Source: Leptolyngbyaceae cyanobacterium (GTDB lineage Bacteria > Cyanobacteriota > Cyanobacteriia > Phormidesmidales > Phormidesmidaceae). Taken from it: a stretch of DNA of 64,000 nucleotides. The notes beneath the pieces are model-generated. The model saw only the letters and a list, made by a program, of their open reading frames with translations. It made no database searches and was not told the DNA's origin. Each line of letters opens with the position of its first letter. The first letter of the stretch is position 1. Both the position numbers and the translations under genes were made by a program. The stretch is from NCBI GenBank assembly GCA_965263355.1, contig CBDHHL010000033.1, positions 1 through 64,000 of the forward strand, written 5' to 3'. Below, piece after piece: positions 3,621 to 56,893 of this stretch.

Positions 3621-3625
3621 TTTTT

Positions 3626-4469: not shown

Positions 4470-4520
4470 TAAGACATGTCGGGCAACCGATTTGTTTTCC
4501 CTTCCGGAGGTTTTTGACTT

Positions 4521-4880: not shown

Positions 4881-4897
4881 TGGCCTTACTCATTAGT

Positions 4898-4979: not shown

Positions 4980-5016
4980 GGGATTGTCAACCAGGAGAAA
5001 AGATACGGTAGAGATT

Positions 5017-8569: not shown

Positions 8570-9094
8570 GTGGGTAAACGCGTTGACTGGGAACATTGGC
8601 GAGGCCTTTATGTAGCTGGGGATGACTCGGTTACTTTTCAGTCTTTATCTGAGCTGGATGGCGCGCCAGCATTCTCTACAATTAGGAACAAAGCGTGCCC
8701 CCCCAAAGACAGCAATGAGCCGAGCTGGGCCGACTTAAGGAAGCAGTACAGAAAAGAATTAGCTAAAGAGTCTGTTGGGGGAGATAGGGTAAGTTTAAGC
8801 GTCGAAGATGCGATTGCTCGGACGGACAAAATAATTGACACCGCCGAGATGCTTACTCAACACAATGCGATCGCTAAAGCATTGATCGGGATAGGCGCTG
8901 CGGGCATTAAGGAGTTTCAGCGAAATAATTTTTCTAAGGCAAAACAGATGAAGCCCCGAGAGCTTTTAGAATTCGCTAAGTTTGGCATAGAAATGCAGCG
9001 CATTATCGAAGGCATGGCCACCAGCAAAACAGAAATAGATTTCAAGGGCATGTCTGACGCGGAATTAAACGCAATTATCGATGGCGACACTTAG
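8570..9094 (+). CDS. terS: Terminase small subunit
   Basis: DWEHWRGLYV HTH-like start; overlaps the start of terL. Confidence 0.75.
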   Translation: MGKRVDWEHWRGLYVAGDDSVTFQSLSELDGAPAFSTIRNKACPPKDSNEPSWADLRKQYRKELAKESVGGDRVSLSVEDAIARTDKIIDTAEMLTQHNAIAKALIGIGAAGIKEFQRNNFSKAKQMKPRELLEFAKFGIEMQRIIEGMATSKTEIDFKGMSDAELNAIIDGDT

Positions 9095-10604
9095 AGATCG
9101 GGCGCTAGCGGAGAAGGAGCGGCGTAGGCGACTGCGGGAAAAAGAGACGGGAAATGGAGTTATCAAGCCCCCATGGCCAGAATTCGCTAGGCAGACTCGC
9201 ATCAGATCAGGCCGCAACCTAGTTCCGTTTGACCCATATCCTTATCAAATAGCTTTTATTGAACAAGTAGAAAAGCACTATGGCACGGTTGCTATCAAGT
9301 CTCGGCAGATGGGATTTACTGAGACCATAGCTAATTACTTTTTATGGAAGGCATTTCGAGACCCTGGCTACCTCTCCGTCATCTTTTCTAAAAACCAAAA
9401 CGATACAGCCAACATCGCTAAGCGTGTCCGCTTAATGATCTCATCAAGATCTGACCTATCCTTAGCGACTGACAGCCTTCAAGACTTGACGCTAGTGGAC
9501 GGAGGTCGGCTGTTATTTAAGCCAGCAACGGCCAATGCGGCAAGAGGATTAGAGTCTGTCTCAGACATATTATTTGATGAAGCGGCCTTTGCTGATGGGA
9601 TTGAGGGCATCTATCAAGCTGCCATGCCATCAACAGAAATGCTAGGCGATGCCGCCAGAATAATTATCCTGAGCACTCCCAACGGACAATCTGGGTTTTA
9701 TTGGGACCGAGTGAATGAAGCAAATGGGGATATTAGCATTATTGAAGCCTGCCAAAATGCTCGGATTGGTGAACCGGTGAAATATTGGACTGACGAAGGG
9801 GGATGGTGCAAGTTTTTGGCTCACTGGAGAGCCCACCCAGTTTATTCAAAAAAACCAGACTACCTGGAGAGTTTGGCAACGCAAAAGCGGATGCCAGCAT
9901 CCAAAATTGAACAAGAGTACGACCTCAGTTTCACTAAGTCTCAAGAAGGCAGGTTGATCAAGAAATTTGATGAGAACCGCCACGTATTGCGTGGCTTTGA
10001 TTCAATACTCTGTACATATGACAATAAGCTGCCACTACATTTAATTTTCGACTTCAACCGATCACCTGCTACGGCATTGGTTGGCCAGCAGCATACATCG
10101 GAGTTGAGAGTGATTCACGAATTTTGTTTTTGGGATTCAGATACCTTTGAATTGGCTGAAAATGTTTGCCTATGGGTTAAAGGCATTGGGCACCAAGGTC
10201 CCTGCTATATCTATGGAGATGCTACTGGGCGCAATCCTAGCGCCAACAGCAGACAAACGAACTGGCAGATTGTTTGGAGCAAACTGGCCGCCCATGGGAT
10301 AAGAGCATTTAAGCGCTACAAAAACTCAAATCCATCTGTTGCGGACAGTGTTTTGAGCCTAGAGTATGCGTTTGAAATAGACAAAGTTTTCATTAATGGC
10401 GAGACTTGCCCCGAGTTGATAGCGGACTTAAACACTGTCAAGGGCAAGGATGGAGGCATTGCTAAGATCGATAAGTCCGATCCTAAACGTACTCATTGGC
10501 TGGATGAACTAAGATACTGGGTAGATAGCCTCATGCCGTATCGTGGCACTCAAGCCAACAGGCCACGCGAAACCCGTCAACGACTAAAAGGAATTGTCAG
10601 CTAA
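9081..10604 (+). CDS. terL: Terminase large subunit
   Basis: PYPYQ, KSRQMGFT Walker A, FDEAAF Walker B, STPNG, RNase H-like FDFN and HWLDELRY. Confidence 0.95.
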   Translation: MATLRDRALAEKERRRRLREKETGNGVIKPPWPEFARQTRIRSGRNLVPFDPYPYQIAFIEQVEKHYGTVAIKSRQMGFTETIANYFLWKAFRDPGYLSVIFSKNQNDTANIAKRVRLMISSRSDLSLATDSLQDLTLVDGGRLLFKPATANAARGLESVSDILFDEAAFADGIEGIYQAAMPSTEMLGDAARIIILSTPNGQSGFYWDRVNEANGDISIIEACQNARIGEPVKYWTDEGGWCKFLAHWRAHPVYSKKPDYLESLATQKRMPASKIEQEYDLSFTKSQEGRLIKKFDENRHVLRGFDSILCTYDNKLPLHLIFDFNRSPATALVGQQHTSELRVIHEFCFWDSDTFELAENVCLWVKGIGHQGPCYIYGDATGRNPSANSRQTNWQIVWSKLAAHGIRAFKRYKNSNPSVADSVLSLEYAFEIDKVFINGETCPELIADLNTVKGKDGGIAKIDKSDPKRTHWLDELRYWVDSLMPYRGTQANRPRETRQRLKGIVS

Positions 10605-22204: not shown

Positions 22205-24292
22205 TTGTTGTTGATGGTCTGCACTGATACCGATAAATTGTTTAACGGATCTATCGTCAGTTGGCGATATGGCAGCAAAAAAGTTTTCCTGGTCCGCAAA
22301 ACAGAAGATTCATTACTAAATGCTGGGTTCGAATTAACCCTCACAGCTGGCACTCAAGTCGTAAAATTAACTGAAGGCGACGGATTGACCAAGGTTGTCG
22401 ACAACGCAAACAAACAAGAATGGTCTGCACTAATCAGCCCCACTCATAAGGCCACGCTACTCAATAACTCCACGACCGACGTGCTGGTCAGTTGGGAAGC
22501 CGCCAGTATCATTGGGGGGGTAAAAATCGCAGGCGATGATGACACCGATTTTACTGGCACCTTCACGATTACAGCTCCCACAGCAGCAGTAGAAGCGACG
22601 TTGAATATTGACTCTACTGCAGTGTTTGTTAGCGCCGCTATTGGCAACGATAGTTTTGCTGCTGGAACAGTAGGGAATTACTATGCCCCTTATGCCACTA
22701 TTTCAGCGGCGATCGCAGCATCGTCCGACGGGGACACCATTATTGTCCGCAATACGGCTGATGGCACCAACAGCACCTTTAGGGAAGAGTGCGATCTTGG
22801 CGGGAAACGGCTAACAATTCGGGCTGAATCAACTGACAGGCCACTGCCGCGAGTCACAACAGCTGACGTACTGACTAACGCCAACTTCAGCGATGCCAGC
22901 AGTAATGCATGGACGATCAGCATCAGCCACGAGATCACTGCAATTGAATCGTTCCCAATTGTTATCGAGGACGACGAACTACTGACGTACGTGGCTGATG
23001 TGGCGACATGTCAAACGACTGCGGGGAGCTATACATACACCGGTCATGACAATGTAAATGCCAACTCAGCAGCAACAATTCCACTGTATATCCACGCTTC
23101 AGACAGCTCTGATATCCGCACCAACGGGAAAGTCTATGAGTGCGGGGTTAGGCAGTATGCGTTTCACAATGCTGGCGACGGGTCCATTATTGACGGCTTT
23201 CAGATTGATACTGCTACTGGAGATAATGGCGCTCTGTATTTCACGGCTAGGGGGACAATCGTAAGAAATTGTCTTTTCAAGTTTGGGAACAGCCATTTTG
23301 CGCAAATCGGATCGGGCATATTCGAGAATTGCGCTTTTTACAAAGATCACATCGCTAACGACTCTCGTATCCCGTCCAGCACTCCCGCTGTCATATTCAA
23401 AAGCAGCAATGATGAGCCCGCGTTGAATGCCTATTTAGGCTGCGTTGTAGATTCGCCCAATACACTCAGTACGGGCGCTACCTTCTTTTGCCATGCCAGT
23501 AATGGGACTGAAGATCTCAAAAAACTATTGGTCAAAGATTGCTATGCACTGAACGGGACAAGAGGAGTTCAAGCTGACGACTGCGAAGAGCTGGACATCC
23601 AAGATTGCTATTTTGATGGTTACGTCCAGGTTGTGCTTTCTGGGCACGAGTCGATAGAGGTTGATGGGCTCATGGCCATCAATGGCGGCACTGACGGATA
23701 CATCGTCAGGAATAACCTAAACTCAGCTACTGCAAACACGACAGTCCGCAACGCCGTTGTAGGATCGCTGACTAGTGTGGATACAGCTTTGTTTTGGGGC
23801 AGGAACGGAACCACTACAGTTAGAAACCTTACTACGACACAGCTAGACAACGAACCTGTAGTGAAATATCACACCGGCTCTTTTGCATTTAGCACGCCCG
23901 ACATCAGGGACAGTATTCTGCAAGGCGACGGGAATATCTACGAAGCGGTCAACACAGGCGATTTCATAACCGCCGACAACAATATTTTGTGGGACAGTAC
24001 AGACAGTACGCCGAGCGTCTTGATCGACAACACCCAATACAACGGGCTAACCAACTGGAACAGCCTGGGTAAAACCCTGCTCGATGAGAATAGCTATCAG
24101 GAGGACCCACAATTCTCAGGCAATATTCTTCAGGGAGATCTAAGCCGATCTGGGGGGACTGGGGTGGGTAGCATCGGAAGCAATCGATCCATCACCCCTC
24201 CCAACTGGACTGCGATGCGAGCACAATGGGATAAGCGGATATTGGCACTTCCACGCGGCCCGGTTGGTGGGAGCAGAATTAGGTATTTTTGA
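22205..24292 (+). CDS. Right-handed beta-helix tailspike/depolymerase-like protein
   Basis: VFVSAAIGND..PYATISAAI..GDTIIVR start motif; repeated VRN/ENC rungs; terminal DPQF. Confidence 0.75.
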   Translation: MLLMVCTDTDKLFNGSIVSWRYGSKKVFLVRKTEDSLLNAGFELTLTAGTQVVKLTEGDGLTKVVDNANKQEWSALISPTHKATLLNNSTTDVLVSWEAASIIGGVKIAGDDDTDFTGTFTITAPTAAVEATLNIDSTAVFVSAAIGNDSFAAGTVGNYYAPYATISAAIAASSDGDTIIVRNTADGTNSTFREECDLGGKRLTIRAESTDRPLPRVTTADVLTNANFSDASSNAWTISISHEITAIESFPIVIEDDELLTYVADVATCQTTAGSYTYTGHDNVNANSAATIPLYIHASDSSDIRTNGKVYECGVRQYAFHNAGDGSIIDGFQIDTATGDNGALYFTARGTIVRNCLFKFGNSHFAQIGSGIFENCAFYKDHIANDSRIPSSTPAVIFKSSNDEPALNAYLGCVVDSPNTLSTGATFFCHASNGTEDLKKLLVKDCYALNGTRGVQADDCEELDIQDCYFDGYVQVVLSGHESIEVDGLMAINGGTDGYIVRNNLNSATANTTVRNAVVGSLTSVDTALFWGRNGTTTVRNLTTTQLDNEPVVKYHTGSFAFSTPDIRDSILQGDGNIYEAVNTGDFITADNNILWDSTDSTPSVLIDNTQYNGLTNWNSLGKTLLDENSYQEDPQFSGNILQGDLSRSGGTGVGSIGSNRSITPPNWTAMRAQWDKRILALPRGPVGGSRIRYF

Positions 24293-24296
24293 TGAT

Positions 24297-25097
24297 ATGG
24301 AATTAAATCAAGTTATTCAAGGCGATTGCTTAGAAGTGATGGATCAACTTATCGCTGATGCCATTATTGTTGATTCGATAATTTGCGATCCACCTTATGG
24401 CACGACCGCTTGCAAATGGGATAGTGTGATCCCGTTTGATGAAATGTGGATGAGATTAAAGAAACTAGTTAAGCCTAATGGGGCAATAGTTTTATTTGGA
24501 AGTGAGCCTTTTAGTAGTGCTCTTAGGATGAGTAATATTAAAGACTATAAATATGATTGGGTGTGGGATAAGACGAGGGGTAGCAACTTTGCTTCTCTTA
24601 AATTTCAACCTTTCAAATGCCATGAATTAATATCTATTTTTTCAAAGAAATCACATATATATAACCCTCAACTAACAAAGAGTCGTGCATATGTTCGCCC
24701 GCCTGGGGAGAAATCTATTGTTTACGGAATGAAGCATGATTCTATAAAAACAGAAAATGCTGGATTTAGGCATCCGTTATCTATCCAGGCTTTCAAAAAA
24801 GACCAGAACGCACTCCACCCTACCCAAAAGCCCGTTGCTCTCATGGAGTACTTAATCAAAACCTACACGCTACCAGGGGAAACCGTCCTAGACTTTACTA
24901 TGGGCAGTGGCAGCACCGGAGTTGCGGCCAAAAAACTAGGTCGTAAGTTTATTGGGATTGAACTAGATACTGATTATTTTGAGATCGCTAAAAACCGTAT
25001 TAATGAAGTATGGGCACCGGGGCAAACAGAGCCTAGCGACAAGAAACCTATTGCAGAAAAAGATCAGCTAGATATCTGGGATGCATTGGCAAGCTAA
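24297..25097 (+). CDS. DNA N4/N6 methyltransferase (beta class)
   Basis: GDCL, DPPY, HPTQKP, LDFTMGSGSTG, FIGIE. Confidence 0.95.
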   Translation: MELNQVIQGDCLEVMDQLIADAIIVDSIICDPPYGTTACKWDSVIPFDEMWMRLKKLVKPNGAIVLFGSEPFSSALRMSNIKDYKYDWVWDKTRGSNFASLKFQPFKCHELISIFSKKSHIYNPQLTKSRAYVRPPGEKSIVYGMKHDSIKTENAGFRHPLSIQAFKKDQNALHPTQKPVALMEYLIKTYTLPGETVLDFTMGSGSTGVAAKKLGRKFIGIELDTDYFEIAKNRINEVWAPGQTEPSDKKPIAEKDQLDIWDALAS

Positions 25098-25259: not shown

Positions 25260-26348
25260 ATGATGCATAGAATCCCAGAGCTACTTAAGCGGAACAGCCT
25301 GATAGGGGCTGCTATTGTTGGGCCAGACGGAAAGTTCTGGGATGTAAATGAGACTCTATGCGAATTATTGGGCTATCAACAAGAAACGTTGCTGCGCCTA
25401 ACGTTTCAGCAGATCAGCCATCCTGAAGATCTAACGCCTCAGGTCAACCCATTCCGCAGCGTAATCAATGGAGAACTTAAATCTTTCACGCTGAAAAAGC
25501 GCTACAAGCATGGGCAGACAGCAGGATGGATTTCTTGCACGTTGCACTGTGAAGGATTCCATTCTGAGTCTGGTGAATTTCTTTATTTCTTTTCCCAAGT
25601 CAGCAAACTGGGCGACAAAGAGCTGACAGAGGTTGAAACACAAAGGCTTTCAGAAATAAAATACGCAATCAACAACAACGGATTTGCCCTGCATTATCAG
25701 CCGATAGTTGACCTGAAAACCGATGAGACCGTTGGTTATGAGGCGTTGTCACGATGGGCAAAAGACAATGAATTAATCTTCCCAGGGGATTTCTTGCCTT
25801 TACTGAGAAAGGCAAACAGTGAACACTTACTGTGCTACTGGGTGATCGAGCGGACCCAGGCAGATTCAATCAAGATTGGCCAGTGGATCAGCTTTAATAT
25901 CTCACCATTCACTCTAGCTAGAGCAGATTGGCACGATCAAAAGCTGCCTGCTAGAGGGCATATGGAGATATTGGAGACTGAGGCTGTTTCTGAGGAGATT
26001 CAGAGCCGGATTCAGTCAGCTAGGGGGAAAGGCGTAAAGATCGCCCTGGACGACTTTGGGACCGGATACTGCAGCTACGATAGATTGCTGAAAGGCCAAG
26101 TTGACCTAGTAAAGCTCGACAGATCTATTATTAGTGGCCTGCCTGCTCGCGAATCCAGAGTAATGGTTGACGCAATTGTGGCGCTATCGCAAAAACTCAG
26201 CATCAAAGTTATCGCTGAAGGCGTGGAAACCCAGCAACAGGCCGACATGTTGAAAGCAATCGGCTGTGACATGGCGCAGGGCTATTTGTTCGGTCGGCCT
26301 GCGCCACTACCCGCGATCACTCGCTCTTCGTCGGGGGCCATTCACTAG
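25260..26348 (+). CDS. PAS-EAL c-di-GMP phosphodiesterase
   Basis: PAS (N..LCELLGY..HPED); HYQP, YEALSRW, FNISP, EILE, DDFGTGY, KLD, AEGVE, QGYLF. Confidence 0.93.
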   Translation: MMHRIPELLKRNSLIGAAIVGPDGKFWDVNETLCELLGYQQETLLRLTFQQISHPEDLTPQVNPFRSVINGELKSFTLKKRYKHGQTAGWISCTLHCEGFHSESGEFLYFFSQVSKLGDKELTEVETQRLSEIKYAINNNGFALHYQPIVDLKTDETVGYEALSRWAKDNELIFPGDFLPLLRKANSEHLLCYWVIERTQADSIKIGQWISFNISPFTLARADWHDQKLPARGHMEILETEAVSEEIQSRIQSARGKGVKIALDDFGTGYCSYDRLLKGQVDLVKLDRSIISGLPARESRVMVDAIVALSQKLSIKVIAEGVETQQQADMLKAIGCDMAQGYLFGRPAPLPAITRSSSGAIH

Positions 26349-29690: not shown

Positions 29691-31151
29691 TTGACCGCAA
29701 ACAGTAGTTTCGACCCATCTCAGGCCATTGGGTATTATCGTGTTTCGACGCAACGGCAGGAGCAAGAGGGCCATAGTCCCGAGCGTTATTTAGAGCGTCT
29801 TGAAGCGGTCGGCATTGCTCCTACTGATATTTATTCTGATGCTGAATCCGGCGGCATATTCGAACGCAAGGATTTACAAAAAGCATTAGCCAGGTTGAAA
29901 AATCCTAATAAGAAATACTTTGTAGTCCCGTATCACTCCAGGGGTCATCGAGATATTGGAGTATGGGTAAAAATCAGGGATGCACTTTTAGAAAATGACT
30001 GCGAATTAATCGAGCTGGACAAAGGGATCAAGCCTATCGACCTGACCAGTGCAGCCGGGAACCTGCAAGCTAACCTGGATGCCACATTTGCGCAGCATCA
30101 ACGAGACCAGGCACGAGAACACAGCGTAAAAGGGCACGCATTCAGGCGTAGTCAAAACAGGATAGTTAATCCGCCATTTGGCTATAAAAAGGACAGTGAC
30201 CAGCGGCTAGTAATTAATGATGATATTTTCCCTGGTTCTGACGGGAAAACCTATCGGGAAATTGCTATTGAGATGATTGACACTCTAATTGAGCTTGGAG
30301 GATATCGGGCCACTATTCGGGCAATGTGCGGTCGTTATGGCGAAAAGCATTCCGATAGATGGGGAGTCGCTAAAAACTTCCCTGTCAGTACTAAGGGATT
30401 TATGAGGTGGGTCCAGTCTCCCGTGATTCGTGGTTATCTGGTTGACTTCCCTGGCAAGCCTAATGAGCTAGTCAGGAAGGGAGACCATGAAGCGATTATG
30501 GACCCTGACCGATGGCGAGCTGTGAAAGTAACTGTCGAAAATATTGCCTCTGCCCCTAATCCGATGAACGATGGGAAGCCCAGAAGCAGAAAGCCATTAG
30601 CTGGCAAAATTAAGTGTGGCTTATGCGGCGGCAGGCATAATAATAGCACTGTCCACAGGCAGGGCAAAACGTATTCATATCTGGTTTGCCGTGGAGGAGC
30701 AGAATCAACCATTAACAGTCGAGTGAAAAGGCAGTGCCCTTATAAGAATTCAATTAAAACGGATCAATTCTTCAAGGAAGTGATCTCACAGGTTTGCGCT
30801 AGGGCACTCGACATTGCTCAAGAATTTGCTGAGCCGAACACTGAAGTGAACCCAGAAATAATAAAACTCAGAAACCAAATACAGCAGCTGCAGGCAATGG
30901 CTGATCCAGAACTGAGTGATGTGATTCAGATTAAGCAGCAGCAACTATCAAAGCTAGAGCAAGCCACTGGGCAAGACGTAGATCCAAACGACGTTGACAT
31001 TTACGAAACGGTTGCTGCTGATCCTGAATTCTGGGAAGAACTAGCCCCCAGTGAACTAAGGATAATTCTTGACTCACTAATCAAGCAGGTTGTTGTTCAT
31101 GGGAAACAACTTTCGCCACAACAACGGGTAAAGGTTCAATTTTACCGTTAG
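29691..31151 (+). CDS. Large serine recombinase (integrase)
   Basis: YYRVST catalytic Ser, SGG..RKDL, PFGY, HEAI, zinc ribbon CGLCG..C..C, coiled coil. Confidence 0.95.
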   Translation: MTANSSFDPSQAIGYYRVSTQRQEQEGHSPERYLERLEAVGIAPTDIYSDAESGGIFERKDLQKALARLKNPNKKYFVVPYHSRGHRDIGVWVKIRDALLENDCELIELDKGIKPIDLTSAAGNLQANLDATFAQHQRDQAREHSVKGHAFRRSQNRIVNPPFGYKKDSDQRLVINDDIFPGSDGKTYREIAIEMIDTLIELGGYRATIRAMCGRYGEKHSDRWGVAKNFPVSTKGFMRWVQSPVIRGYLVDFPGKPNELVRKGDHEAIMDPDRWRAVKVTVENIASAPNPMNDGKPRSRKPLAGKIKCGLCGGRHNNSTVHRQGKTYSYLVCRGGAESTINSRVKRQCPYKNSIKTDQFFKEVISQVCARALDIAQEFAEPNTEVNPEIIKLRNQIQQLQAMADPELSDVIQIKQQQLSKLEQATGQDVDPNDVDIYETVAADPEFWEELAPSELRIILDSLIKQVVVHGKQLSPQQRVKVQFYR

Positions 31152-31462: not shown

Positions 31463-31720
31463 TCATGCTGCCTCCCGCCGTCGCTGGACAAATTGATTGT
31501 TTCGGCCTCGCGCATCTTTAGTGATTGCCCCCCTTTGGCCATACCAAAACATGAGTTGGGCTGTCGATTGAGCCCCTACTTTATCAACAGCTAGCTTGAT
31601 GTGAGAGCGAATAACAATAGTGGTTATTCCTAGTTTGCTCGCAATTTTTTTGTTATGCATGCCCTGAGCCAGCATTGAAACAATGCTGTGCTGTCTTGGC
31701 GTTAGTTCAAGTGGGTTCAT
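31463..31720 (-). CDS. LuxR-type HTH protein
   Basis: LTPRQ..LAQGMHNKKIASKLGI; start chosen at MNPLEL. Confidence 0.85.
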   Translation of the reverse strand: MNPLELTPRQHSIVSMLAQGMHNKKIASKLGITTIVIRSHIKLAVDKVGAQSTAQLMFWYGQRGAITKDARGRNNQFVQRRREAA

Positions 31721-32733
31721 GCTGTCAATACCTCCCAAATATCCAGTTGTTTTTTGCTTGTAGTTTTTCGACCGTCTACGTAAGCCTCGCCGTCCACAGG
31801 TAAGCAAGCTGGAGACAACCAGAGTGTTTCTAGTTCTCGATTGTTGTTCTCCGCTTTAGTGTTCTGTCCTGCATATCCTTTGCCACATTTCCAGCGCACT
31901 TTACGCCAGTCTCCAGGCATTTCATGTTCACCTTCATAGCCGCACAACACGATCCTTAGGCTAGGGTTTTCCCCGTTCTCCGTGGCCCATTCTCGAACTT
32001 TTTCGCTCACTTCAGTTTCTACTGAGTAAAGATCCGCTCTTAAATCCTGACGATAGGGTGGGTCCAACAAAATCGCTGTAAGCCCTATTTTATGGGTAGG
32101 GGATGGGCCTAAAACCCGTTGCCAGTCCCCACAACAAACACGAACACGCCGCAGCCTGTCAGCCAGTGCATGAAGATACTCAAACAAGTCTCCCTGTTCG
32201 TGGCCACCTAAATGAGGTCTTTTGCGATGGACTCCCCGCCCGTAACGTAAATCGGGTCTTTTGCGATGGACTCCCCGCCCAGTGTCACCTAAATGAGGTA
32301 GCTGCGTTGAAGCTGCCTTATTTAGGTGGCACCAACCCGAACCAATCCAGCAGCACAGCCCCCACACCCACCAGCCAGCAACCTTGGCGTCATAAAAGTC
32401 AGGATCTCTTAGCATCTTTTCCCTGAAGTCAGCACGAGAGATCAGCCAATTATGCCGAGCATGTAGGTCAGCTTCATTGACTGGCTGATCGCACCAATGG
32501 AAAACGCTATCAGGGTCATGCTGCAATGCACGCCAAAAATTGGCGACATAACAATCTAAGTCGTTGACTGTTTCAGTATGTTGCAACGGATCGTACCCTT
32601 CCCGTAACAACACAGTGGCCAGACTGCCCGCGAACGGTTCTACATAGTTTGGGACATCCCCAAACGCTTGCCAGATCAAATGGGCGGCTCGACTTTTCCC
32701 GCCAAACCAAGGGAAAGGTGCTTTAAGCTTCAT
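31717..32733 (-). CDS. Dam-like (D12 class) DNA adenine methyltransferase
   Basis: PFPWFGGKS, YVEPFAGS, VNDLD, LDPPY. Confidence 0.92.
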   Translation of the reverse strand: MKLKAPFPWFGGKSRAAHLIWQAFGDVPNYVEPFAGSLATVLLREGYDPLQHTETVNDLDCYVANFWRALQHDPDSVFHWCDQPVNEADLHARHNWLISRADFREKMLRDPDFYDAKVAGWWVWGLCCWIGSGWCHLNKAASTQLPHLGDTGRGVHRKRPDLRYGRGVHRKRPHLGGHEQGDLFEYLHALADRLRRVRVCCGDWQRVLGPSPTHKIGLTAILLDPPYRQDLRADLYSVETEVSEKVREWATENGENPSLRIVLCGYEGEHEMPGDWRKVRWKCGKGYAGQNTKAENNNRELETLWLSPACLPVDGEAYVDGRKTTSKKQLDIWEVLTA

Positions 32734-35014: not shown

Positions 35015-35307
35015 GTGGCCAGGGTGGCCAGGGGTGGATCACGGGTGGCCAGGGGTGGCCAAAAACTTGAAAGTACTGAGATTAAAGGGCTGTAGCCAGG
35101 GTGGCCAGGGTGGCCAGGTGTCCGGGGTAAAAAAGCAAAGTAGCAGGATTTGATTTTTTTTTTGACTAAAAACGCTCGAAAATTTCATCTTTGTCTGAAG
35201 CTAATCTTTTACCCTGGCCACCCTGGCCACCCTGGCCACCCCCGGCCTGCGGTCGTTCTGGCGATATAGACTTTTCGGCCACCAGGTGGCCACCCTGGCC
35301 ACCTGGC
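35015..35307. repeat. Opposed arrays of the 9-mer GGTGGCCAG; probable replication origin
   Basis: Direct copies at 35015-35120, inverted copies at 35212-35307, around an A/T-rich centre at the helicase stop. Confidence 0.8.
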
Positions 35308-36992
35308 TTTATTTCGGTTCGATGCTCTTTTGTGGGCTCCCACTGAGAAAAAAGTTCTAGGCTGCCTTCTTGGCATGATTGCTTTCTGCAGATAAGGTTA
35401 TTTCGACTTAGCCCTGTTGCAGGATCTTCGTCTTGTTCAAAGACTCCAGAAATTGCTTGAATCCAAGACCATTTAGCTGGCAATCTTTTTAGTTTGCCGT
35501 CGTTGCCCCTTTCTTCAGTCTCACCCGGCTTCGCTCGTCGTCTAGGTGTGTAGTGTTTTGGGATAATGGTTTTCAAGTGGCTAATAAACTTTGGTTGCCC
35601 TTTTGGGGTAAGCGAATGAGCCTTGCAGTAGGCCGTGTACCAATCGTGGATAAGCCCTGGATGGACAATCGGCTCAGCGGCTTTACTGCCAAAAGGAATA
35701 GGAATTAAGCATCTATCAACAAAGCTCGCAACACTGTCACCATGGGTTTTAGATTCGTGCATTGATGTAGCGATACGGTCTGAGTAATCCCATGGTTTTT
35801 TAATGACTTGATTGCGCTCTTTTTTGTCCATCGACAATGCCCACGCTATAATTCCTGCCCTGTTTTCTTCTAATTGATTTTCTAAATTAGGGATCTCTGA
35901 ACTTTCCGTTCTGCGTTGAGTTAATAATGGAATTACTCGTCGATCCCAGCCCCCAGCCGAGTTTTCCAGCTGAAGGTATTCAACTGAAGCGATCGCAAAT
36001 CGTACGTCCCACTGGATGCTATAAGCTGCCGACGAGAACAACGCTCGGCCTGACATGGGGCCATTATCAACAAGTTCGTAAAATGCTTCTAACCCTTTTT
36101 GGTACCCTTGAATGTCTGGAATCACGTAAAGGCTTGCGCCTTGTAGATTTTGATGACGTTTGTCAGCGTCAATAAATTCACTAAATGAATTACCAGACCT
36201 GGCGCTGTCTTCGCCGAAAAGTTTCTGAAGCAATCGAATCATTACTCCTTTACCTGATCCAGATGGCCCAACAATATGAATGAACTTCCCCCATGGAGCA
36301 GTGGGATCTAAGATCATGCTGATAGCAGCGCGCACTATCAGCACCATGTCTTCACCGTAGCTACTAAGAAGAAAATCCATGAAGACCTGAGGGCATTGAG
36401 CGTCAGGGTCGTAATCACATGAAATAGCACTAGTTAAATAATGATCTGGTGAATGCTGGGTAGTTGCGCCCGTACGCATGTCAACAGTGCAATTCTTAAA
36501 TGCCCGTAAATGCTTATTGCTTGGGAGTGATTTTGATAGCTTCGTCAAAATACTTCTCGCGTACTTCAACCCGCTGCTAGCCGCTGAAATAGACCCACAA
36601 TATCTTTTGTATCGAGCATTCTTAGGCCCTATCCACTTGAATGTCTTGTCTGTAGTTAGAGTGATAGCCTTAAGAACATCCTGATCAGGTACAGCCGACC
36701 AGTACCCGTGGTCTCTGTTGTACTGATAGAACGCATCATTTAAGACTGTATAACTCCCTTTCCCGAAACAGCATCGATACAAATGCATATCCATTGTTAT
36801 AGACGGCTTTAACTCATGCTCACTTTCGCTAACTTGCTTTTTTTCTTTTTCTTGTCGTTTTAGTCGTTGATATCGCGAGGCAAATTCTTTGGCCTCGCGA
36901 TCAATTGGCTTGAATTGAGTAGCGTTAAGCCCAGAAATCTTCTGAAGCTCAGCCATATACATCTGCAATTCAGCCGTACTAATTTTTTTCAT
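35166..36992 (-). CDS. D5/P4-type SF3 helicase
   Basis: FKNCTVDM..HSPDHYLT D5-N motif; GPSGSGKG Walker A; WDRRVI. Confidence 0.88.
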   Translation of the reverse strand: MKKISTAELQMYMAELQKISGLNATQFKPIDREAKEFASRYQRLKRQEKEKKQVSESEHELKPSITMDMHLYRCCFGKGSYTVLNDAFYQYNRDHGYWSAVPDQDVLKAITLTTDKTFKWIGPKNARYKRYCGSISAASSGLKYARSILTKLSKSLPSNKHLRAFKNCTVDMRTGATTQHSPDHYLTSAISCDYDPDAQCPQVFMDFLLSSYGEDMVLIVRAAISMILDPTAPWGKFIHIVGPSGSGKGVMIRLLQKLFGEDSARSGNSFSEFIDADKRHQNLQGASLYVIPDIQGYQKGLEAFYELVDNGPMSGRALFSSAAYSIQWDVRFAIASVEYLQLENSAGGWDRRVIPLLTQRRTESSEIPNLENQLEENRAGIIAWALSMDKKERNQVIKKPWDYSDRIATSMHESKTHGDSVASFVDRCLIPIPFGSKAAEPIVHPGLIHDWYTAYCKAHSLTPKGQPKFISHLKTIIPKHYTPRRRAKPGETEERGNDGKLKRLPAKWSWIQAISGVFEQDEDPATGLSRNNLICRKQSCQEGSLELFSQWEPTKEHRTEIKPGGQGGHLVAEKSISPERPQAGGGQGGQGGQGKRLASDKDEIFERF

Positions 36993-49138: not shown

Positions 49139-49420
49139 TTAATCATCTTCTTCTATCCTCAGCAGGTCTAGTATCGCTACCTCTTGTCCAGACCAGATAG
49201 AGGCCAGTCGTGCCAATTTCACTTGGTTCGAGAAATGCCCCCTGTCCAGTCGTCCATCTAACGCCAATCTCAAAGTATTACGGCCCACTTCGTTAGGACC
49301 ACCCAAAAGACTTGTGTACACGGAATTAACCGATACGGGCTCCCCCGCTTCATCTTTGGGCCAGTATTTCGAAATATCTAAGTAAACTTTCACGGCGTCA
49401 GGCATAGACAGAACATCCAT
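49139..49420 (-). CDS. Probable HTH regulator
   Basis: VGRNTLRLAL..LARL..ILDLL XRE-like pattern; divergent from palindromic operators. Confidence 0.55.
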   Translation of the reverse strand: MDVLSMPDAVKVYLDISKYWPKDEAGEPVSVNSVYTSLLGGPNEVGRNTLRLALDGRLDRGHFSNQVKLARLASIWSGQEVAILDLLRIEEDD

Positions 49421-49438
49421 AGATTGTCCTCCAAATAC

Positions 49439-49522
49439 TTGACTTTTTGGAATATTAACGCATTGATTTACTGAAAGTCAACACTTCAACCTATTGACAT
49501 GTTGAAAGTCAACGTGCATAAT
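49439..49522 (+). promoter_or_regulatory. Promoter with TTGA-N11-TCAA operators
   Basis: TTGACA-17-CATAAT; TTGATTTACTGAAAGTCAA and TTGACATGTTGAAAGTCAA. Confidence 0.7.
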
Positions 49523-49565
49523 AGTAGCCAAGCAAGCAGACCACCCCTCACACGGAGCTAAACCA

Positions 49566-51653
49566 ATGATCGCTACAGCCGCTACTTCCATCCGCTCAAC
49601 TCTTCCTAACAAGGTTGATGCCGAACTTCGTTTGGCGGTTGGATTGATTCTTTCTGCCCACGATCTTTTGGATCAAGGGCAGAGGGCTGATGCGATGTTT
49701 GGTGGTGGTGGCCGCTATGAGGCCGATGCAGTAGAAAACCGCTTTGGCACCAGCCTAAAGATGTTTAACCGTGTTCGTCATGCGTTTGAAACTATCGAGC
49801 AGTGGAGAGAAAAAGCTCCTAAAAATATTGATTTTGACGCTTTGCTCCATGAGTACGGCGAGTTTGATGTTCTTGAAGAGCCAAGAATGACAGGTCAAGG
49901 CTACCTATACCTGAATGGTTCGCTGACGCCGCCAGTTATTCCTGTCAATTAACTCCAGGCTCTGAGCAAGCTTCCAATACTGCTCGCGTAATTAAACACC
50001 GCCGGAGCCCACGACAATGATCAACCTTCCTCAGCTGCAGAGATCCTTGGACAATACAATCCTTGCCTACCAGCAAGACAAGCCGGTCACCACCAAGCGA
50101 CTACACCTACTGTCTGAAGTTCGCTTGCGGGTGACCCTAGATGGCAATATCCCTGAGCAGTACCAAGACTTGCTGACTGACAGGATGATGCAGATTCAAG
50201 CATACGCATTCAATCAGCAGCAGCACTAAATTCCATAACAAAGCCCTGGGGAGCTACCAACTACACCAGGGCCTTGCAGCTCAAACTAATAGCAATTCGA
50301 ACTAATGAAAACTTTAGCACTAGAATTCCGTCAAACTCATCCAAATCAATACCTAATCATTGACGCTGACACTCGCGTTCATGGCCATATAGGATTTGAT
50401 GCAACCTCTATGCGCTGGGAATATGCGCCATACGCTCAATCCGTAAAGGCAGTCGGCACCTTGGAGGAATGCAATGCTGCTGCTGAGGCTGACTACGAGG
50501 AGTGGCTAAACCAGTCGGTCGTCACTCATGTCTCCAGTAAATCTATGCCCGCTTATTTGGCTACCAATTCCAGCTGGCGTACTGCAGGCGATGGCTATGT
50601 GACTGAAGTGACTGTGAAGACCCGCGACAACGAAACCTACACCATCAAAACACCTAGCGAATTTGCCAGACAGTTATCCGTCGGCACTACTGTCCAGTTA
50701 TTCCCCACACAGACAGGTGTGGCCATCCGCTGGACTCGTAAACCCGTCCGTCGGACAGTCGTTGCAGCGTAGGGGGTTAGCCATGAAATACGTACAGCTG
50801 ATCGATCATGACAACTCCGATGTTGTCTGGTTGATCTGGGCCAAGGGCCATGTAAGCGCATTTGACAAAGCTCGTCGAAGGGGGGTGCCTCAATCGTTCT
50901 CCTTGGCAATGAACTTTGACCCTGAGTATCGTCCGCTGTTCAACGGCTAAGTTTCACCCATCCATAGCCGATCACCCCACTTCGGTGGTCGGCCTGTAAA
51001 CACTAAGGAATTAATCAAATGGCATTAAGCAAAAAGCAGGCTGCAGAGGTGGCCGCACGGACTAGCCTGCCTGAATGGCAAGTCCAGCAGATAGCAAAGT
51101 TCGCGAACGTCAAGCCCACAGTCAAGCAGGAGCAGAAGAAGAATGGTTAATTTAACTCAGTTTTCAGTACGCCTCACTACCTTATGTATCCTGTGGTGTG
51201 TCGTTAAGTTTGCCCAGTACTTACTTAAGTGCTGTGACCGCATCCAAGACGCCGACTCTACTGGCTGGGCCGAAATCCGGCTGCAGTGCGATATCCGGCA
51301 AATGGTTGAGGATGCTGCCAGGAAAGCTTGGGACCAGGAACGCGGTTGGGCTTGATAGAGTACTGATAAAACGTCAAATAAGAGGAAATATGAAGGACGA
51401 GGAAAAAGAATATCTATACAATGGCCGATATATTTCGCTTGAAAAGCCAAAATCGCTTAATGAAGCGCTCAATATCTTGCCTGCAGGAACCCTACTGAGT
51501 GGGGCCGTGGCAGTAAAGATCCTTTTCAATGTCACATGGCTATCCATGGCATTGTTTTTCTTGGCGATAATCCCAGCTACCTTAGGAGCACTGACCCTTG
51601 GTCTAGCTGTTGTCGTTGAAGTAGCAAGCTACCTCAAAAAACGCAGCCAATAG
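49566..51653 (+). CDS. Operon of hypothetical genes (49566-49952, 50017-50229, 50305-50772 and smaller ones)
   Basis: Same-strand ORFs ending at a terminator near 51679-51708. Confidence 0.6.
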
Positions 51654-52264
51654 CTCATAAGATTGGGTAAGCTTCGGTGACGGGGACTCTGCGGGGTCCT
51701 CGTTTTTTATTGTGGGGCCTTACCTTCTGGTTGGCGGTTGCAGGGGCTTGGGACCCTGGATAGGGTGAGGGGATCACCTGCTCCCGTCTTTCCGAGAATA
51801 TATCTCACGCATTGCACTAGATCTGGCAGAAATAATCCAAAACTTATCCACTTCGTATTTATGCGGTATTATCCCGGTCCAAAATGAATTAAAAACAGAA
51901 AACGCCTGTCCGACTGGGTATCGTACCCACACTAAATCGCATTCGTGAAGCCTGCCAGTATCTTCGGTCGAAAGGCTTTCTGGTATTGTCAGCCTTAGTT
52001 TAATAGGGCTTGCCTGTGATTCTTGCTTGATATCACAGACATAAGAATTCCCCCACGGGACATCATTGGGCGTAATTATTTTTATCTTGAAGCTTCTGGC
52101 GCTCAAAATATATCTGCTGTTTTTCTGACTTATATAAAAAGCATCAGAGGAGTCAAACGGTGCCTCAAAGTGCCTCACTAAAAACTGTATATGCATCTCA
52201 GTATTACTCATCTCCATAAATTAAATCACCGATGCCTCTAGCGGATAGATTGAGCCAATATTGA

Positions 52265-52522
52265 CTAATCTTGAAGCCCTTTCTCTATGGCTGCGATCGC
52301 CTGAACTATCTCGACGTCATCGCCAGCTTTTTCCTTTATCACTTTCAGTGCTTCAGCCATAGCCTTGCGCTTAGACTGCGACTGCCTTTTGGCAACCGCT
52401 TCCCTGACTATAGCTTCCGCCAAATTAGAAAGGCTTCGAAAATCTTCGTCGGCCCAGGCTTCTAGCTCTGACTTTAATTCTTCGTCTGCAATGAAAGATA
52501 TTCGCGACTTCTGGGTGGGCAC
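52265..52522 (-). CDS. CopG/RHH regulator
   Basis: RISFIADEELKSELEAWA...RSLSNLAEAIV. Confidence 0.85.
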   Translation of the reverse strand: MPTQKSRISFIADEELKSELEAWADEDFRSLSNLAEAIVREAVAKRQSQSKRKAMAEALKVIKEKAGDDVEIVQAIAAIEKGLQD

Positions 52523-52627
52523 TGACTCAATTGATAACGTCTAGCCAATATTAGCTTAGTGCTTCACTTATGCAATAAATCTGCTAACAGTGTTGCACTT
52601 ATGAGCACTTGTGCTAAAGTATTGACT

Positions 52628-52690
52628 ATGTTCAGGACATGTCCGAAACGTTCAGGACATGTTCAGCGGATGTTCACCCAGTGTTCATCG
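52628..52690 (+). repeat. Six ATGTTCA-like direct repeats at ~11-bp spacing
   Basis: Copies start at 52628, 52639, 52648, 52659, 52670 and 52681. Confidence 0.85.
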
Positions 52691-52731
52691 AAATCGCTAA
52701 AACACTGATTCTCTCGTTGACCTTTCTCTAA

Positions 52732-52962
52732 ATGTCCATTGACACTCTCTTGAATGTGACGCAAGCCCATGAACTCGCCACCGAATTGGTGGGCGCTGAA
52801 ATTTCAAGGACAGCGTTTTACAACTGGCGTGTTTTTTTGAATATTAGGAAGCGGTTTTACACGGTTGATGAGGTTGAGGCGATCGCGTTATTCGGTTCGT
52901 ACACTCGCAAGGGCTTGTCCAAAAGAGAAGCCCTTGCTGCATGTAAACAACAAAGTTCTTAG
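52732..52962 (+). CDS. MerR/excisionase-like HTH protein
   Basis: ISRTAFYNWR..FYTVDEVEAI. Confidence 0.65.
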   Translation: MSIDTLLNVTQAHELATELVGAEISRTAFYNWRVFLNIRKRFYTVDEVEAIALFGSYTRKGLSKREALAACKQQSS

Positions 52963-52964
52963 CT

Positions 52965-54524
52965 ATGGATAATTCAGTTTTTGACAATGCTCAGTATGCT
53001 GACGAGACTCAGCAATCAGAGACCAGTACAGCATTAGTCGCCCAAGGCGTTGCTAATGCACAGCTTCAAAATATTTCGACCACATTGCAGGACGCAGCAG
53101 CACAGAATGATTTGATTGCTGAGACGCTCGCTCCTCAGGTGCAAGATTTTTTCGCGCACGACTTGGAACGAAAGTTGCTAGGCAAATTGGACTTAAGCGG
53201 AGCGATTCAGCGCCCAAAGCTGGAGATCGTGAACATGGAGGAAGTAAAGGCGATGCTGCCGTCTGCTCCGAGTATCACGGTGCCAACCTTGCCCCAAAGC
53301 CTCTCCCCATCGGCGGCATTGTTGCCTGTGGTGGATTATTAGGGCTTAGCTGTATCGCTGGTGGTTTCATGGCGTTAGCTGGGTTTGGCAGTCTTCAGTC
53401 TCAGTGGTCTGCCGACAGAAGCCACCAGCGTTGGCTAGCTGAGCGAGAGCGAAAAACAGAGCGAGCTATTAAAGGCATTGATGCTCAAGGCTCAATCGCT
53501 CAAACCTATGCCGATAACAATCAAGCGCAGTACAATGCCTTGGTCATTGAGGGGTATGTGTGCAGCGACTTAACTCCTCCGAGGTTTGATATTCAAGGGC
53601 AGTCAATGGTAGATGACTACGTCAAGGTTTTTGACCAAAATCGGCTAATCATTGGCACGCTGCATCCGCTCAATATTCACCCTAACGGGTACTTCCAGTT
53701 CCATCCTGTTTGTAGTAACGAAAATGACAGCATCCAGACCAATTAAAGATGACAACATTTGGGTAGCCGTTGGGGCAGCTCCTTTTAGAGCCGCTACTCG
53801 TAGCTACCGCTATTTATCTAGCGTGCCAGGTTTTGGCCTGGTAGCGCATGTGGCGACTACCTACTGTGCTCTTTTGTCTATTGAAAGTGTCATGGTAGCT
53901 GTGCCTGTCAATCACCCTCAGCGCTCTGAATTCACGACCAAGGCTGAATACAAAGAAGTTGTTGAAGCCGTTAGGCGGACACGACGGTTTGTCCCTAAGT
54001 TTGCAGTGAATGATGGAGCCGATATTAGGCGGTTACTGCCCATCGCTAATCTTCATAATCTGCTGGTTAACGAAGTCACAAAAGACTGGGAGTGGATGCC
54101 TGATTTCATAAGAGAAAGGGCAAAATCTGAGTTCTGGACAGTTTGGAGTAACCCCGCTTTATTTGTTCTTGCGGCTAGTACTGCCATTATGATCCAGCGG
54201 TTTGAGGCTGTTTTCATAAGAAAGAAATCAGCGGAGATCACCAAAGCTCAGTTCGAAAAAGCTAATTCCATGAAGAAGGTTGAGGCTGACCCTAGAGCGA
54301 TCGCTCTAGCAGCTATCCGAGCAGAGGAGCATAACCGGCAAGGGATGGGTGAAGTAGGCGTTGGTTATGCTGGTATTTGCTTGCTGTACATCGTTGAATT
54401 CGGCGCTTTTTTGGGCTCTTTCTCAGGTGCGGGCAGCTTTATCGTTAATACGATTTATGCGTTGCTAACTGTGTTTGGGTTTGAGTTGTTTGATCGCTTC
54501 ACCGGGGACGAGGTTGAGGAATAA
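52965..54524 (+). CDS. Three co-transcribed proteins, two with predicted membrane segments (52965-53342, 53369-53746, ~53724-54524)
   Basis: Hydrophobic helices; overlapping starts and stops. Confidence 0.65.
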
Positions 54525-54528
54525 ATGA

Positions 54529-55947
54529 TTGTCTAGAAAGCTAGCTATGTCGTATCGAAACAGATTCATCATTCAGGCCAAAAGCCTCAGGAATAAAGCG
54601 TCTCAGACAAGGCAGTTGGCCCAACTGGGAAAAGCAAGCGGATTGACAACCATAGCTGTGGGTGCGGCTGGGTTGCTAGGGTCTGCTGCAGCTGCTGTTC
54701 CTTTGGCTGTAGGCGCTGTCACTTATGCCGCCTGCATGGTGTGCGAATCGTCTAGGACAAAGCGCTTCATGCCGTTGCCCTGGAATAACTGGGATGCTTT
54801 GAGATCTGCTAATAGTCATGCTGGCATTTCAACGGGATATCCAGAGCTAGGGGTTCAAGCTCACCATTATCTAAGCCAAGAAGATAAGGCTCGATTTTAC
54901 CTGACAAATTATCAGGGCCATATGTTGACAGCATTGGCTGAACAGGTAGGGCCTCAAGAGTTCAACCACATCACTATCAACATGGTTGACACCTTGATTG
55001 GCGTAGCTGGGAGATGGCTGAATTACCCAGAGTTGATGTCTGAGGCAGCTGGAACGGACTTGTTAGAGATTGCTGCCTCAGCGATTCCCGACGCAGCACC
55101 CGCTATCCCCAAACGTCGTCCAAAGAAAATGCCCAAGTCAGTCAGGACAATCCCTGCCAAGGTAGAGCCTGTATCCACACCTAATGCTGATCAATTTGAA
55201 GAAGACCCATGGCTAGAACCACTAGAACCAGTCGCTGCAACGAAAGCATCCAGCAGGCGCGCTTCAGCTCAAGAATTGATCATTGCTAGGCCGTACGTTT
55301 CTAGAGCTTTTTATGGCGCTCAACGATCTGGAAAAACATGGCTAGCTGCTGTTTGCTCTGCGGAGTTAGCAGCATCCGATCTTAAAACAAAGACTTTTTA
55401 TATAAATCTTTGTCATGCCGAGGCAGATTCATTGGATATATGGAGCCATGCCAAAAAGGTAATTGCTGACTTGTCTGTCTGTGATGCATATACGGCTGAA
55501 GACGCTATTGAAGATTCACTAGAGCTAATCGACGAGGCTATGAAAAGCCCTCACAGCTTATTGATTGTGGATGAGTTTATTTATACAGCATCTACAACTA
55601 ATCAATACGCTGAACAGATGAAGCCATTGGTCACTAAGCTGGCCGACAAAATCACTACACTGTCTAGTGCCGGGACTAAACGAAAGCAGGCGATATACAC
55701 CATCGCCCCTAACATTGTCGCTAGCCGGTTGTCTAATGATGGGAAGGCTGTTAAGTCGCTTGAACCCACGTTAGTTGGCATTGCGCCTGGATACAGTATT
55801 GACGTGGATGGCCATGCTGTGATCTGGAGTGACGAAGTGTTCACGCAGGTCTACGACAATTACAAAGGGGTTCAACACCCTGGTGATAAAGATTATCTTT
55901 CAGAGCGCATTGCTTGGGTGAACAATAAGTGGAGGCCAGTGTCGTAA
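54529..55947 (+). CDS. Membrane-anchored FtsK/HerA-like P-loop ATPase
   Basis: N-terminal hydrophobic hairpin, Pro-rich linker, GAQRSGKT Walker A, LLIVDE Walker B. Confidence 0.75.
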   Translation: MSRKLAMSYRNRFIIQAKSLRNKASQTRQLAQLGKASGLTTIAVGAAGLLGSAAAAVPLAVGAVTYAACMVCESSRTKRFMPLPWNNWDALRSANSHAGISTGYPELGVQAHHYLSQEDKARFYLTNYQGHMLTALAEQVGPQEFNHITINMVDTLIGVAGRWLNYPELMSEAAGTDLLEIAASAIPDAAPAIPKRRPKKMPKSVRTIPAKVEPVSTPNADQFEEDPWLEPLEPVAATKASSRRASAQELIIARPYVSRAFYGAQRSGKTWLAAVCSAELAASDLKTKTFYINLCHAEADSLDIWSHAKKVIADLSVCDAYTAEDAIEDSLELIDEAMKSPHSLLIVDEFIYTASTTNQYAEQMKPLVTKLADKITTLSSAGTKRKQAIYTIAPNIVASRLSNDGKAVKSLEPTLVGIAPGYSIDVDGHAVIWSDEVFTQVYDNYKGVQHPGDKDYLSERIAWVNNKWRPVS

Positions 55948-56509
55948 TGGCGGTCAAGGCAATAAGCCCATGGGGATGGATAAGCGAGATCAGGTTGAGT
56001 TAATGAAGCGTATGCGAGGCGATGATTCAAATGGATATTCTGTTATTTGGTTTAATAGCCATGGCTATCATGGCAATAGAAAATATCTTCACTTCTGACG
56101 CTAGCAGAAAGCAAAATAAAAAAATTGCTTTCTTGCAAGAAGAAATTGACGAACTAAATAAACAAGTGAACATCCTCAAAAATCAAACCAAACGATTGGA
56201 AACTTTAGAGGAGATTGTAATTGATCGTGAAACGCTATAGAAAATGATCGAAATCGCAGACGCAACAGATAATGAGGTCTATTATCCCTGTGGTTATTTT
56301 GAGTCTTTAGAAGAAGCAAATGCTGCCATAGACTCTTATTTTCAAAAGCACGGCATACCACCGAATTTTGAGGTCACAGACGGATTCGTGATCAAGCTTG
56401 AACTAAGGGAATTGCCCATTGGTTTGACGACTTCAAGAAGCGTAGTTTCTCGACGCATTTGGACGGAAGAGTACGATTCAGAAAAAGATATCTATTACTG
56501 GGCTGAGCA

Positions 56510-56893
56510 ATGATTCTATTCTGGCCATCGGTGCCACTAAGAAAACGTGCCAGGCTCCCCAGTAAGCCTGGGCTCTATGCCGTACGTTGGCTTTTTATTA
56601 CTTGGTACGTTGGCAAGTCGGTGAATCTGAGGAACCGCTGGGAGAATCACCACCGATACCCCCAGGTAAAACGACTACCCTGGTGTAGGATTGCGTACTG
56701 CACTATGCACAAAGATGCAATCCATGGCGCAGAAAGGAGACTGATCCGGCTCAACAAACGGCCATGGACTTGGAATGATACGCGAGTGCCTAGCAAGCTG
56801 GAACTATGGCGAGGTGATGCGATTCGGGCAATACTGTCTTGGGTTTGTCTTATGGGATTGGGTTTGTTGGCTGTTGAGTTACTGGGAGGATAG
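56510..56893 (+). CDS. GIY-YIG-like protein with C-terminal hydrophobic tail
   Basis: PGLYAV..YVGKSVNLRNRW..H..AE. Confidence 0.8.
   Translation: MILFWPSVPLRKRARLPSKPGLYAVRWLFITWYVGKSVNLRNRWENHHRYPQVKRLPWCRIAYCTMHKDAIHGAERRLIRLNKRPWTWNDTRVPSKLELWRGDAIRAILSWVCLMGLGLLAVELLGG

Follow-up and report, generated by a model that had tools for sequence, protein, structure and literature searches.

The window, i.e. the whole 64-kb stretch of Leptolyngbyaceae DNA analysed here, is a temperate cyanophage-like element in which genes for a terminase, a serine recombinase and a D5-like primase were identified. Between positions 52265 and 55947 lies an operon ending in a membrane-anchored ATPase gene, for which an earlier note had proposed a role in cell-to-cell DNA spread, by analogy with the TraB/clt/Spd systems of Streptomyces plasmids. 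The divergent ribbon–helix–helix (RHH) regulator, the six phased repeats, the membrane proteins and the anchored Walker A/B ATPase described there were all recovered in place; the gene proposed to encode a helix–turn–helix (HTH) protein is also present, its HTH label being a weaker assignment. The features of the operon (open reading frames, ORFs, numbered as in the operon) and of the region just downstream are as follows.

52265..52522, minus strand: RHH regulator, 85 residues, divergent, positional analogue of TraR/KorA (Pfam RHH_5, E = 2.4e-7, above cut-off)
52627..52690, plus strand: six phased direct repeats with a TGTTCA core and a period of ~11 bp, in the promoter
52732..52962, plus strand: ORF2, 76 residues, MerR/Xis/BldC-like HTH protein (weak assignment)
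52965..53342, plus strand: ORF3, 125 residues, soluble, no hydrophobic segment
53315..53746, plus strand: ORF4, 143 residues, single-anchor membrane protein with an inferred GTG start at 53315, conserved first core gene
53724..54524, plus strand: ORF5, 266 residues, multi-pass membrane protein, second gene of the conserved core
54529..55947, plus strand: membrane-anchored FtsK/HerA-superfamily ATPase, 472 residues (TTG 54529) or 466 residues (ATG 54547)
55948..56200, plus strand: region matching the array site of relatives, array absent

The RHH protein is 36–48% identical to small genes in three plasmid loci (L062, L098 and L063 in our numbering of related loci), and a divergent small regulator occupies its position in most related loci. 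The repeats start at 52629, 52640, 52649, 52660, 52671 and 52682 (spacing 11, 9, 11, 11 and 11); the copy at 52640 is degenerate (TGTCCG), and five of the six have exact GTTCA cores. Only 2 of 2000 shuffles of the intergenic bases reached five copies, as did 2 of 608 tiles of the window (overlapping each other), the promoter array being the best period-11 stretch of the window. ORF2 has no Pfam match of its own, and the homologue search returned ORF2 alone; the HTH label comes from Atlas clusters (cyanobacterial clusters at 0.90–0.91 and a MerR cluster at 0.88, weak evidence) and from the positional counterpart in L029, which matches MerR_1 at E = 0.007 and aligns with ORF2 at a BLASTP E-value of 0.047. 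ORF3 matched no family in Pfam, PHROG or a further family search. ORF4, which has one hydrophobic segment if it starts at GTG 53315, is 29–32% identical to the gene at the same position in L003, L084, L085 and L089; ORF5, with four hydrophobic segments, lies immediately 5′ of the ATPase gene, as does its counterpart in these four loci, and may be called Spd-like by position and topology. No match to ORF5 was found in the plasmid set, and direct BLASTP gave no significant alignment of ORF2, ORF4 or ORF5 with their counterparts in L001. Among the 48 window proteins scanned with Pfam, neither relaxase nor type IV secretion system (T4SS) families were detected and a terminase was, in agreement with the earlier note.

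The ATPase is predicted (AlphaFold2 model, pLDDT 87) to consist of a helical anchor (residues ~7–185), a disordered linker (~186–245) and a 230-residue motor (~246–472), with a single hydrophobic segment above threshold (~54–72) located within a predicted helical hairpin. It contains a Walker A motif, GAQRSGKT, and a Walker B motif, LIVDE; across 139 aligned domains, three motifs are conserved, GxQR[TS]GK, hhhhDE and SxGxKR (K269 98%, E349 100%; G 97%, K 87% and R 84% in the third motif). The GTKRK sequence, previously taken for a degenerate arginine finger, fits this third motif and is no sign of decay, since it equals the family consensus. In the FtsK/HerA superfamily, the arginine finger precedes a strand ending in Gln; the residue found after S-x-G-x-K-R is a Pro where HerA/FtsK-like relatives have Gln, and distant relatives read SxGxSRG...Q or GRS...Q. 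Structural comparison of the modelled motor (~240–472) retrieved VirB4 (4ag5, Z 15.5, rmsd 3.3 over 193 aligned residues), HerA (4d2i, Z 13.7), TcpA (6o1x, Z 13.2), B204 (Z 12.2), EccC (Z 11.7) and FtsK (2ius, Z 11.2), and Foldseek with the full-length model gave generic RecA-like matches only. As for the sequence itself, FtsK_SpoIIIE matched neither the window ATPase nor 31 domain sequences in Pfam, no informative match was found in the PDB and none at all in annotated phages or, in three scans, in viral_contigs; Atlas clusters labelled FtsK and DUF87 came up at 0.87–0.89, and another motor joined to the same anchor matches an FtsK-annotated gene (E = 1e-4). As modelled, the ATPase is thus an FtsK/HerA-superfamily motor and not specifically a TraB.

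A profile made from the ATPase and its three sisters retrieved 224 clusters at E ≤ 0.001, the best 150 of the 224 being listed, and related loci were collected from named genomes (11), metagenomes (33), plasmids and further genomes. Judged from these sequences, the ATPase belongs to an undescribed family present on plasmids, integrated elements and prophages. The usual gene order is a divergent regulator, then either a ParM-like actin gene with a small partner or an HTH gene with a helical gene (sometimes fused), followed by a single-anchor gene, a multi-pass gene and the ATPase gene. The ParM-like gene, identified as Pfam ALP_N in L008 and L017, comes first in 26 of the 42 loci counted; in the window operon, ORF2 and ORF3 take the place of the ParM-like gene and its partner. 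The window anchor also occurs with motors of other types (P0024, P0029, P0046, P0049, P0063 and P0080), so that anchor and motor appear to be exchanged as parts. ORF4, ORF5 and the anchor are nearest to those of plasmid-like or integrated elements (L003, L084, L085 and L089), and the anchor and membrane genes show 45–50% likeness to those of plasmid-type elements that have other motors. The prophage-like locus L090 has a small gene 68% identical to window positions 49139–49420, yet its own module is of another, tailed type and comes with an array and an M23 gene. By its distribution, then, the module is an exchangeable cassette. Note that in the subgroup formed by L007, L011, L034, L036, L083, L086–L088, L090 and L093, the N-terminus of the ATPase is signal-peptide-like and the genes that follow the ATPase gene encode a multi-pass protein, a tiny membrane protein and an M23 peptidase-like protein.

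Most members of the family continue beyond the motor. Among 138 proteins examined, 122 could be classified by their length after the motor, some of the short ones being perhaps cut by contig ends: a tail of at least 45 residues is present in 99 and absent in 23, the window protein included. The tail of one relative, modelled with 18 aligned tails, gives a predicted winged-helix fold (pLDDT 95; best Z 9.1, rmsd 1.8 over 60), and labelled winged-helix domains occur throughout its list of structural matches. Moreover, of 47 tailed loci, 32 have a repeat array between −40 and +250 of the ATPase stop (p ≤ 0.02), versus 3 of 61 control segments taken 700–990 bases downstream. This count excludes contig-end loci, duplicates, nine rows without a detected Walker A motif (L002 among them) and L070, whose tail falls between bins; for L028 and L030, the script chose the wrong Walker A.

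The repeat unit varies with the tail. Near-identical motors with unrelated tails have a repeat unit in common in 0 of 13 pairs, whereas related tails on distant motors do so in 5 of 10. More specifically, L108 and L004, identical at 39/68 positions in the tail and 47/210 in the motor, both have GTCCC arrays (L108 was found after the pattern had been noted), and L058 and L020 (40/62 and 42/209, respectively) both have CTACA arrays; the motors of L020 and L004 are identical at 206/223 positions and their repeats differ. Thus, in the relatives compared here, the repeat unit follows the tail and not the motor, and the family has a TraB/clt layout because a winged-helix tail is combined with a co-varying downstream array. 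In L008, the downstream array (11137–11260) is arranged in two inverted halves, AGCCAA then TTGGCT. L060 (14104–15924, i.e. 49437–51257 of pCC7120alpha) has a tail that looks purely helical, with no downstream array found, and L055 and L057 resemble it. In L002, from a Moorena plasmid, the ATPase (3442–5472) has an HNH domain in place of the winged helix, and a thermonuclease-family gene follows.

The window ATPase stops four residues past the last conserved Trp, exactly where its three sisters end (P0002–P0004, 68–88% identical). A frameshifted tail beyond the stop was considered and rejected on account of this common end. No array was detected downstream of the gene (best 5-mer run p = 0.24 and p = 0.53 in two tests), and the whole-window scan returned arrays only at ~35015/35216, at 52350 (loose, inside the RHH gene) and at 52630. 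The first of these, a GGTGGCCA array at 35015–35260, was examined as a displaced clt and rejected, since it flanks the end of the primase gene and is origin-like. Downstream arrays are found in none of the four tail-less loci with DNA (the window, L001, L033 and L040, the fragment L041 being excluded) versus 32 of the 47 tailed ones (p = 0.016). In a FastTree tree, the tail-less proteins are spread over several branches. Identity between the window protein and its sisters is 79–94% in the motor, 63–89% in the anchor and 41–61% in the linker, and 10 of the 14 variants in the module (among 40 variants listed) are synonymous. The shared end, the high conservation of the motor and the mostly synonymous variation make the tail-less form look maintained.

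What, then, is the role of the promoter array? Arrays of other units occupy the same upstream position in 5 of the 6 operons led by an HTH gene, in 1 of the 15 led by ParM and in none of the 4 remaining operons that lack ParM (p ≤ 0.02), start positions having been picked by hand and two further ParM-first loci lying at p 0.02–0.035. Given its position in the promoter and this association with HTH-first operons, the window array belongs to the HTH gene and is not a clt, and we infer that 52627–52690 is the binding array of the HTH protein. The six repeats had been read, by analogy, as clt; this reading has to be given up, the ATPase being also devoid of the winged helix that reads clt in TraB. 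By hand count (L014, L061 and L093 dropped), the tail is missing from 4 of the 16 operons that have no ParM gene and from none of the 26 that have one (p = 0.016), a confinement that fits loading via an HTH–repeat complex. In conclusion, the window operon is, at the level of layout, a tail-less form within a TraB/clt-like family of cyanobacteria, and its copy lacks two defining TraB/clt features: the proposed TraB/clt/Spd analogy holds for the relatives, with their winged helix and co-varying array, and not for the tail and downstream array of the window copy.

The hosts of the family were then considered. All named hosts are filamentous or unassigned, and the 25 plasmid records (a figure with no denominator) all come from filamentous genera. 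The phylum was sampled evenly with 401 genomes, of which 101 carry hetR (PF03574), taken here as a proxy for filamentous lineages. Motor matches were obtained in 10 of these 101 genomes versus 0 of the 300 hetR-negative ones, six of the ten having supplied sequences to the profiles; the other four, newly found, are all hetR-positive as well (p = 0.003), one of them (L112) with another tail and without array. Seven candidates were scored per genome, and many of the hetR-negative genomes are small. G002, a metagenome-assembled genome bearing the operon, has no hetR match. In each of these tests the hosts came out as filamentous, the distribution that the earlier note had proposed to check. Among the plasmids typed, 15 of 23 are conjugative or mobilizable and 8 are non-mobilizable, including complete plasmids of 13–39 kb; the operon is a main backbone part of small non-mobilizable plasmids (complete ones of 13–36 kb), some of which also carry a separate ParA, and it is split into pieces in a 13-kb Tolypothrix plasmid. 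It is also found on pCC7120alpha of the model strain Nostoc PCC 7120 and, among the small non-mobilizable plasmids of strains in culture, on plasmid5 of Fischerella NIES-4106 (with tail and array) and plasmid6 of Scytonema HK-05; L001 adjoins a MOBP relaxase gene.

The phage in the window probably has a filamentous host as well. Twelve homologues of ORF5 were found, the named ones being from Leptothoe and one unassigned cyanobacterium (45–48% identity), and the octamer GCGATCGC, the cyanobacterial HIP1 signature, occurs 15 times in the window versus 0.7 expected. Portal-, capsid- and tail-like ORFs were assigned by position; the genes identified are the following.

9081..10604: terminase large subunit
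29691..31151: serine recombinase
35166..36992: D5-like primase

At 35015–35260, around the 3′ end of the primase gene, two inverted clusters of GGTGGCCA-type repeats of 9–11 bp flank an A/T run and look like an iteron origin; together with the primase, they suggest that the phage may persist as a circle. The phage also encodes two DNA methyltransferases (24264–25097 and 31717–32733) and a PAS-EAL protein of the cyclic di-GMP phosphodiesterase type (25260–26348; Pfam EAL, E = 1e-56), relatives of which (29–33%) occur in the prophage-like loci L091 and L094, both also bearing the module. Directly after the module comes a holin/spanin-like single-anchor coiled-coil gene (56031–56240; PHROG E = 0.001), then a small GIY-YIG-like gene (56510–56893), GIY-YIG-like relatives lying near the module in L011, L023 and L027. 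Related contigs from three runs join 51712 to 52275, skipping 562 bases beside the RHH gene. Contig depth over the module (~30–106) falls below that of most flanks (up to ~880) in three runs of one study; as ranking by depth is not advisable, it was not used as evidence.

We propose that the operon encodes a pump that would move the circular phage replicon across septa to neighbouring cells and that would be loaded via ORF2 on the promoter array; we give this proposal a probability of roughly 0.45. In this scheme, RHH would hold operon expression down, ORF4, ORF5 and the ATPase anchor would form a membrane complex, and the motor ring would pump double-stranded DNA. The tailed relatives would select the DNA of their own element through the winged helix bound to the downstream array. 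In the window phage, ORF2 might instead coat the 11-bp array in the head-to-tail fashion of BldC on direct repeats, and ORF3 might connect the ORF2–array complex to the membrane machine, so that the circular genome would be loaded and passed through the septum to the next cells of the filament with no virions involved. The wider proposition, namely that filamentous cyanobacteria own a relaxase-free, TraB/clt-like pump that carries double-stranded plasmid and phage DNA through septa and is made of swappable parts (anchor, motor and winged helix with its repeats), and that the tail-less version of the phage loads via the HTH/promoter array, allowing a prophage to colonise the entire filament, starting from a single infected cell, without virions, is a tentative one, and rather doubtful when taken as a whole.

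Several observations weigh against a septal pump. The window copy has neither of the two features that govern substrate choice in TraB; with tail and matching array lost, the pump, if it moves phage DNA, must choose it in another way. The step in which ORF2 acts as adaptor is weakened by the lack of an upstream array in the other tail-less loci (L001, L033 and L040). Nor is an upstream array a general substitute for a downstream one, since L012, L028 and L029 have both, with differing units, and the tail is kept in 12 of the 16 operons without ParM. Among the tailed loci, 15 of 47 have no array at p ≤ 0.02, including L003, the closest relative by membrane genes, and the loci are related, so that all these counts overstate independence; the profiles were, in addition, seeded from filamentous hosts. 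By Z score, the motor is closer to VirB4, HerA and TcpA than to FtsK, and Pro replaces Gln after the arginine-finger strand. Finally, cyanobacteria differ from Streptomyces in having thylakoids, an outer membrane and a thick wall at the septum.

The operon could serve segregation, the pump clearing element DNA from the closing septum or positioning the daughters' copies, together with ParM/ParR or with the HTH/helical pair. FtsK does so for chromosomes (PMC4447253), ParM-like genes lead the majority of the loci counted, and the phage, with its primase and iteron-like repeats, may be maintained as a circle; yet ParA is also found on non-mobilizable plasmids with the operon, and segregation alone would leave unexplained the two extra membrane proteins, the M23 peptidase of some variants and the skew towards filamentous hosts. 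We regard this possibility as unlikely. Somewhat less credible is a tail-less copy that moves no phage DNA and instead interferes with the tailed systems of resident plasmids and rival phages or borrows from them (through mixed rings or exclusion), or else pumps without sequence choice. The absence of tail and downstream array, the loss of the tail on several branches, the similarity of anchor and membrane genes to those of plasmid-type elements with other motors and the different, tailed module of the related prophage L090 are what such a copy would predict, whereas the intact Walker A, Walker B and K-R motifs, the motor being the best-conserved part, and the retention of the entire operon with regulator and array are not.

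A membrane ATPase complex with a task unrelated to DNA in the phage cycle (protein export, superinfection exclusion, lysis timing or anti-phage defence) seems improbable to us: the fold is common to EccC/EssC protein pumps and HerA defence ATPases, the next gene is the small holin/spanin-like one and one relative ends in an HNH domain, but most relatives reside on plasmid-like elements without virion genes and have a winged helix that goes with repeats of their own. A last reading takes the ATPase for what remains of a coupling protein or VirB4 from ordinary relaxase/T4SS conjugation, or the copy for a decaying one. VirB4 is indeed the top structural match, one locus lies beside a MOBP relaxase gene and most of the typed plasmids are conjugative or mobilizable; on the other hand, about a third of them (8 of 23) are not, no relaxase was seen among the window proteins scanned, and the reading frames are intact and conserved. 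This reading is, in our opinion, highly improbable.

If the septal pump were real, filamentous cyanobacteria would have a parallel system by which DNA, and not only small molecules, crosses septa, and phages might spread inside a multicellular host with no need of virions. The tail/repeat pairs offer immediate predictions for binding assays, and the question is directly testable, since the operon is present on small non-mobilizable plasmids of cultured strains and on pCC7120alpha. A functional operon would also be a tool to bring a construct into every cell of a filament.

As described in two papers, Streptomyces TraB reads repeated 8-bp motifs via a C-terminal winged helix (PMC3583192; PMC4447253); in the first of them, the clt of pWTY27 spans the final part of traA and 159 bp next to it. 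Conjugation of double-stranded DNA by a single FtsK-like pump is placed in mycelial Actinobacteria by PMC3548315 and by a 2025 review, PMC12857230, and our literature search, made by title and start of abstract among non-subscription papers, found no description of a TraB/clt-like system in cyanobacteria. The operon resembles the Streptomyces TraB/TraA-clt-Spd-TraR systems (pSVH1, pIJ101, pJV1 and pWTY27) in its anchored FtsK-superfamily ATPase, its small membrane genes, its divergent regulator, a layout without relaxase and multicellular filamentous hosts; relatives of the window ATPase add the C-terminal winged helix and element-specific direct repeats at the end of the ATPase gene. The likeness of ORF4 and ORF5 to Spd proteins is one of position and topology. 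Unlike TraB, the window ATPase has no detected sequence match to the TraB/FtsK Pfam models and has its own motor motifs (GxQRxGK, SxGxKR and Pro for Gln); the hosts are diderm, ParM or HTH/helical genes head the operon and the regulator is RHH rather than GntR. Furthermore, the window copy resides in a tailed phage and has neither winged helix nor downstream array.

BldC binds direct repeats head to tail and RacA anchors DNA to cell poles (PMC5859096); the window operon, with a possibly MerR-like small HTH protein encoded beside phased direct repeats, recalls BldC, Xis and RacA, within the limits of the weak ORF2 assignment. TcpA and VirB4 depend on partners, a relaxase and a T4SS, neither of which is found among the 48 window proteins scanned, and HerA acts with a nuclease partner, none being seen at the window operon. 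The window motor, of only 230 residues, is more compact than those of FtsK/SpoIIIE, TcpA of pCW3, VirB4 and HerA, with which it shares the predicted motor fold (Z 11–15.5), and the tailed relatives have in common with FtsK the order of N-terminal anchor, linker, motor and winged helix.

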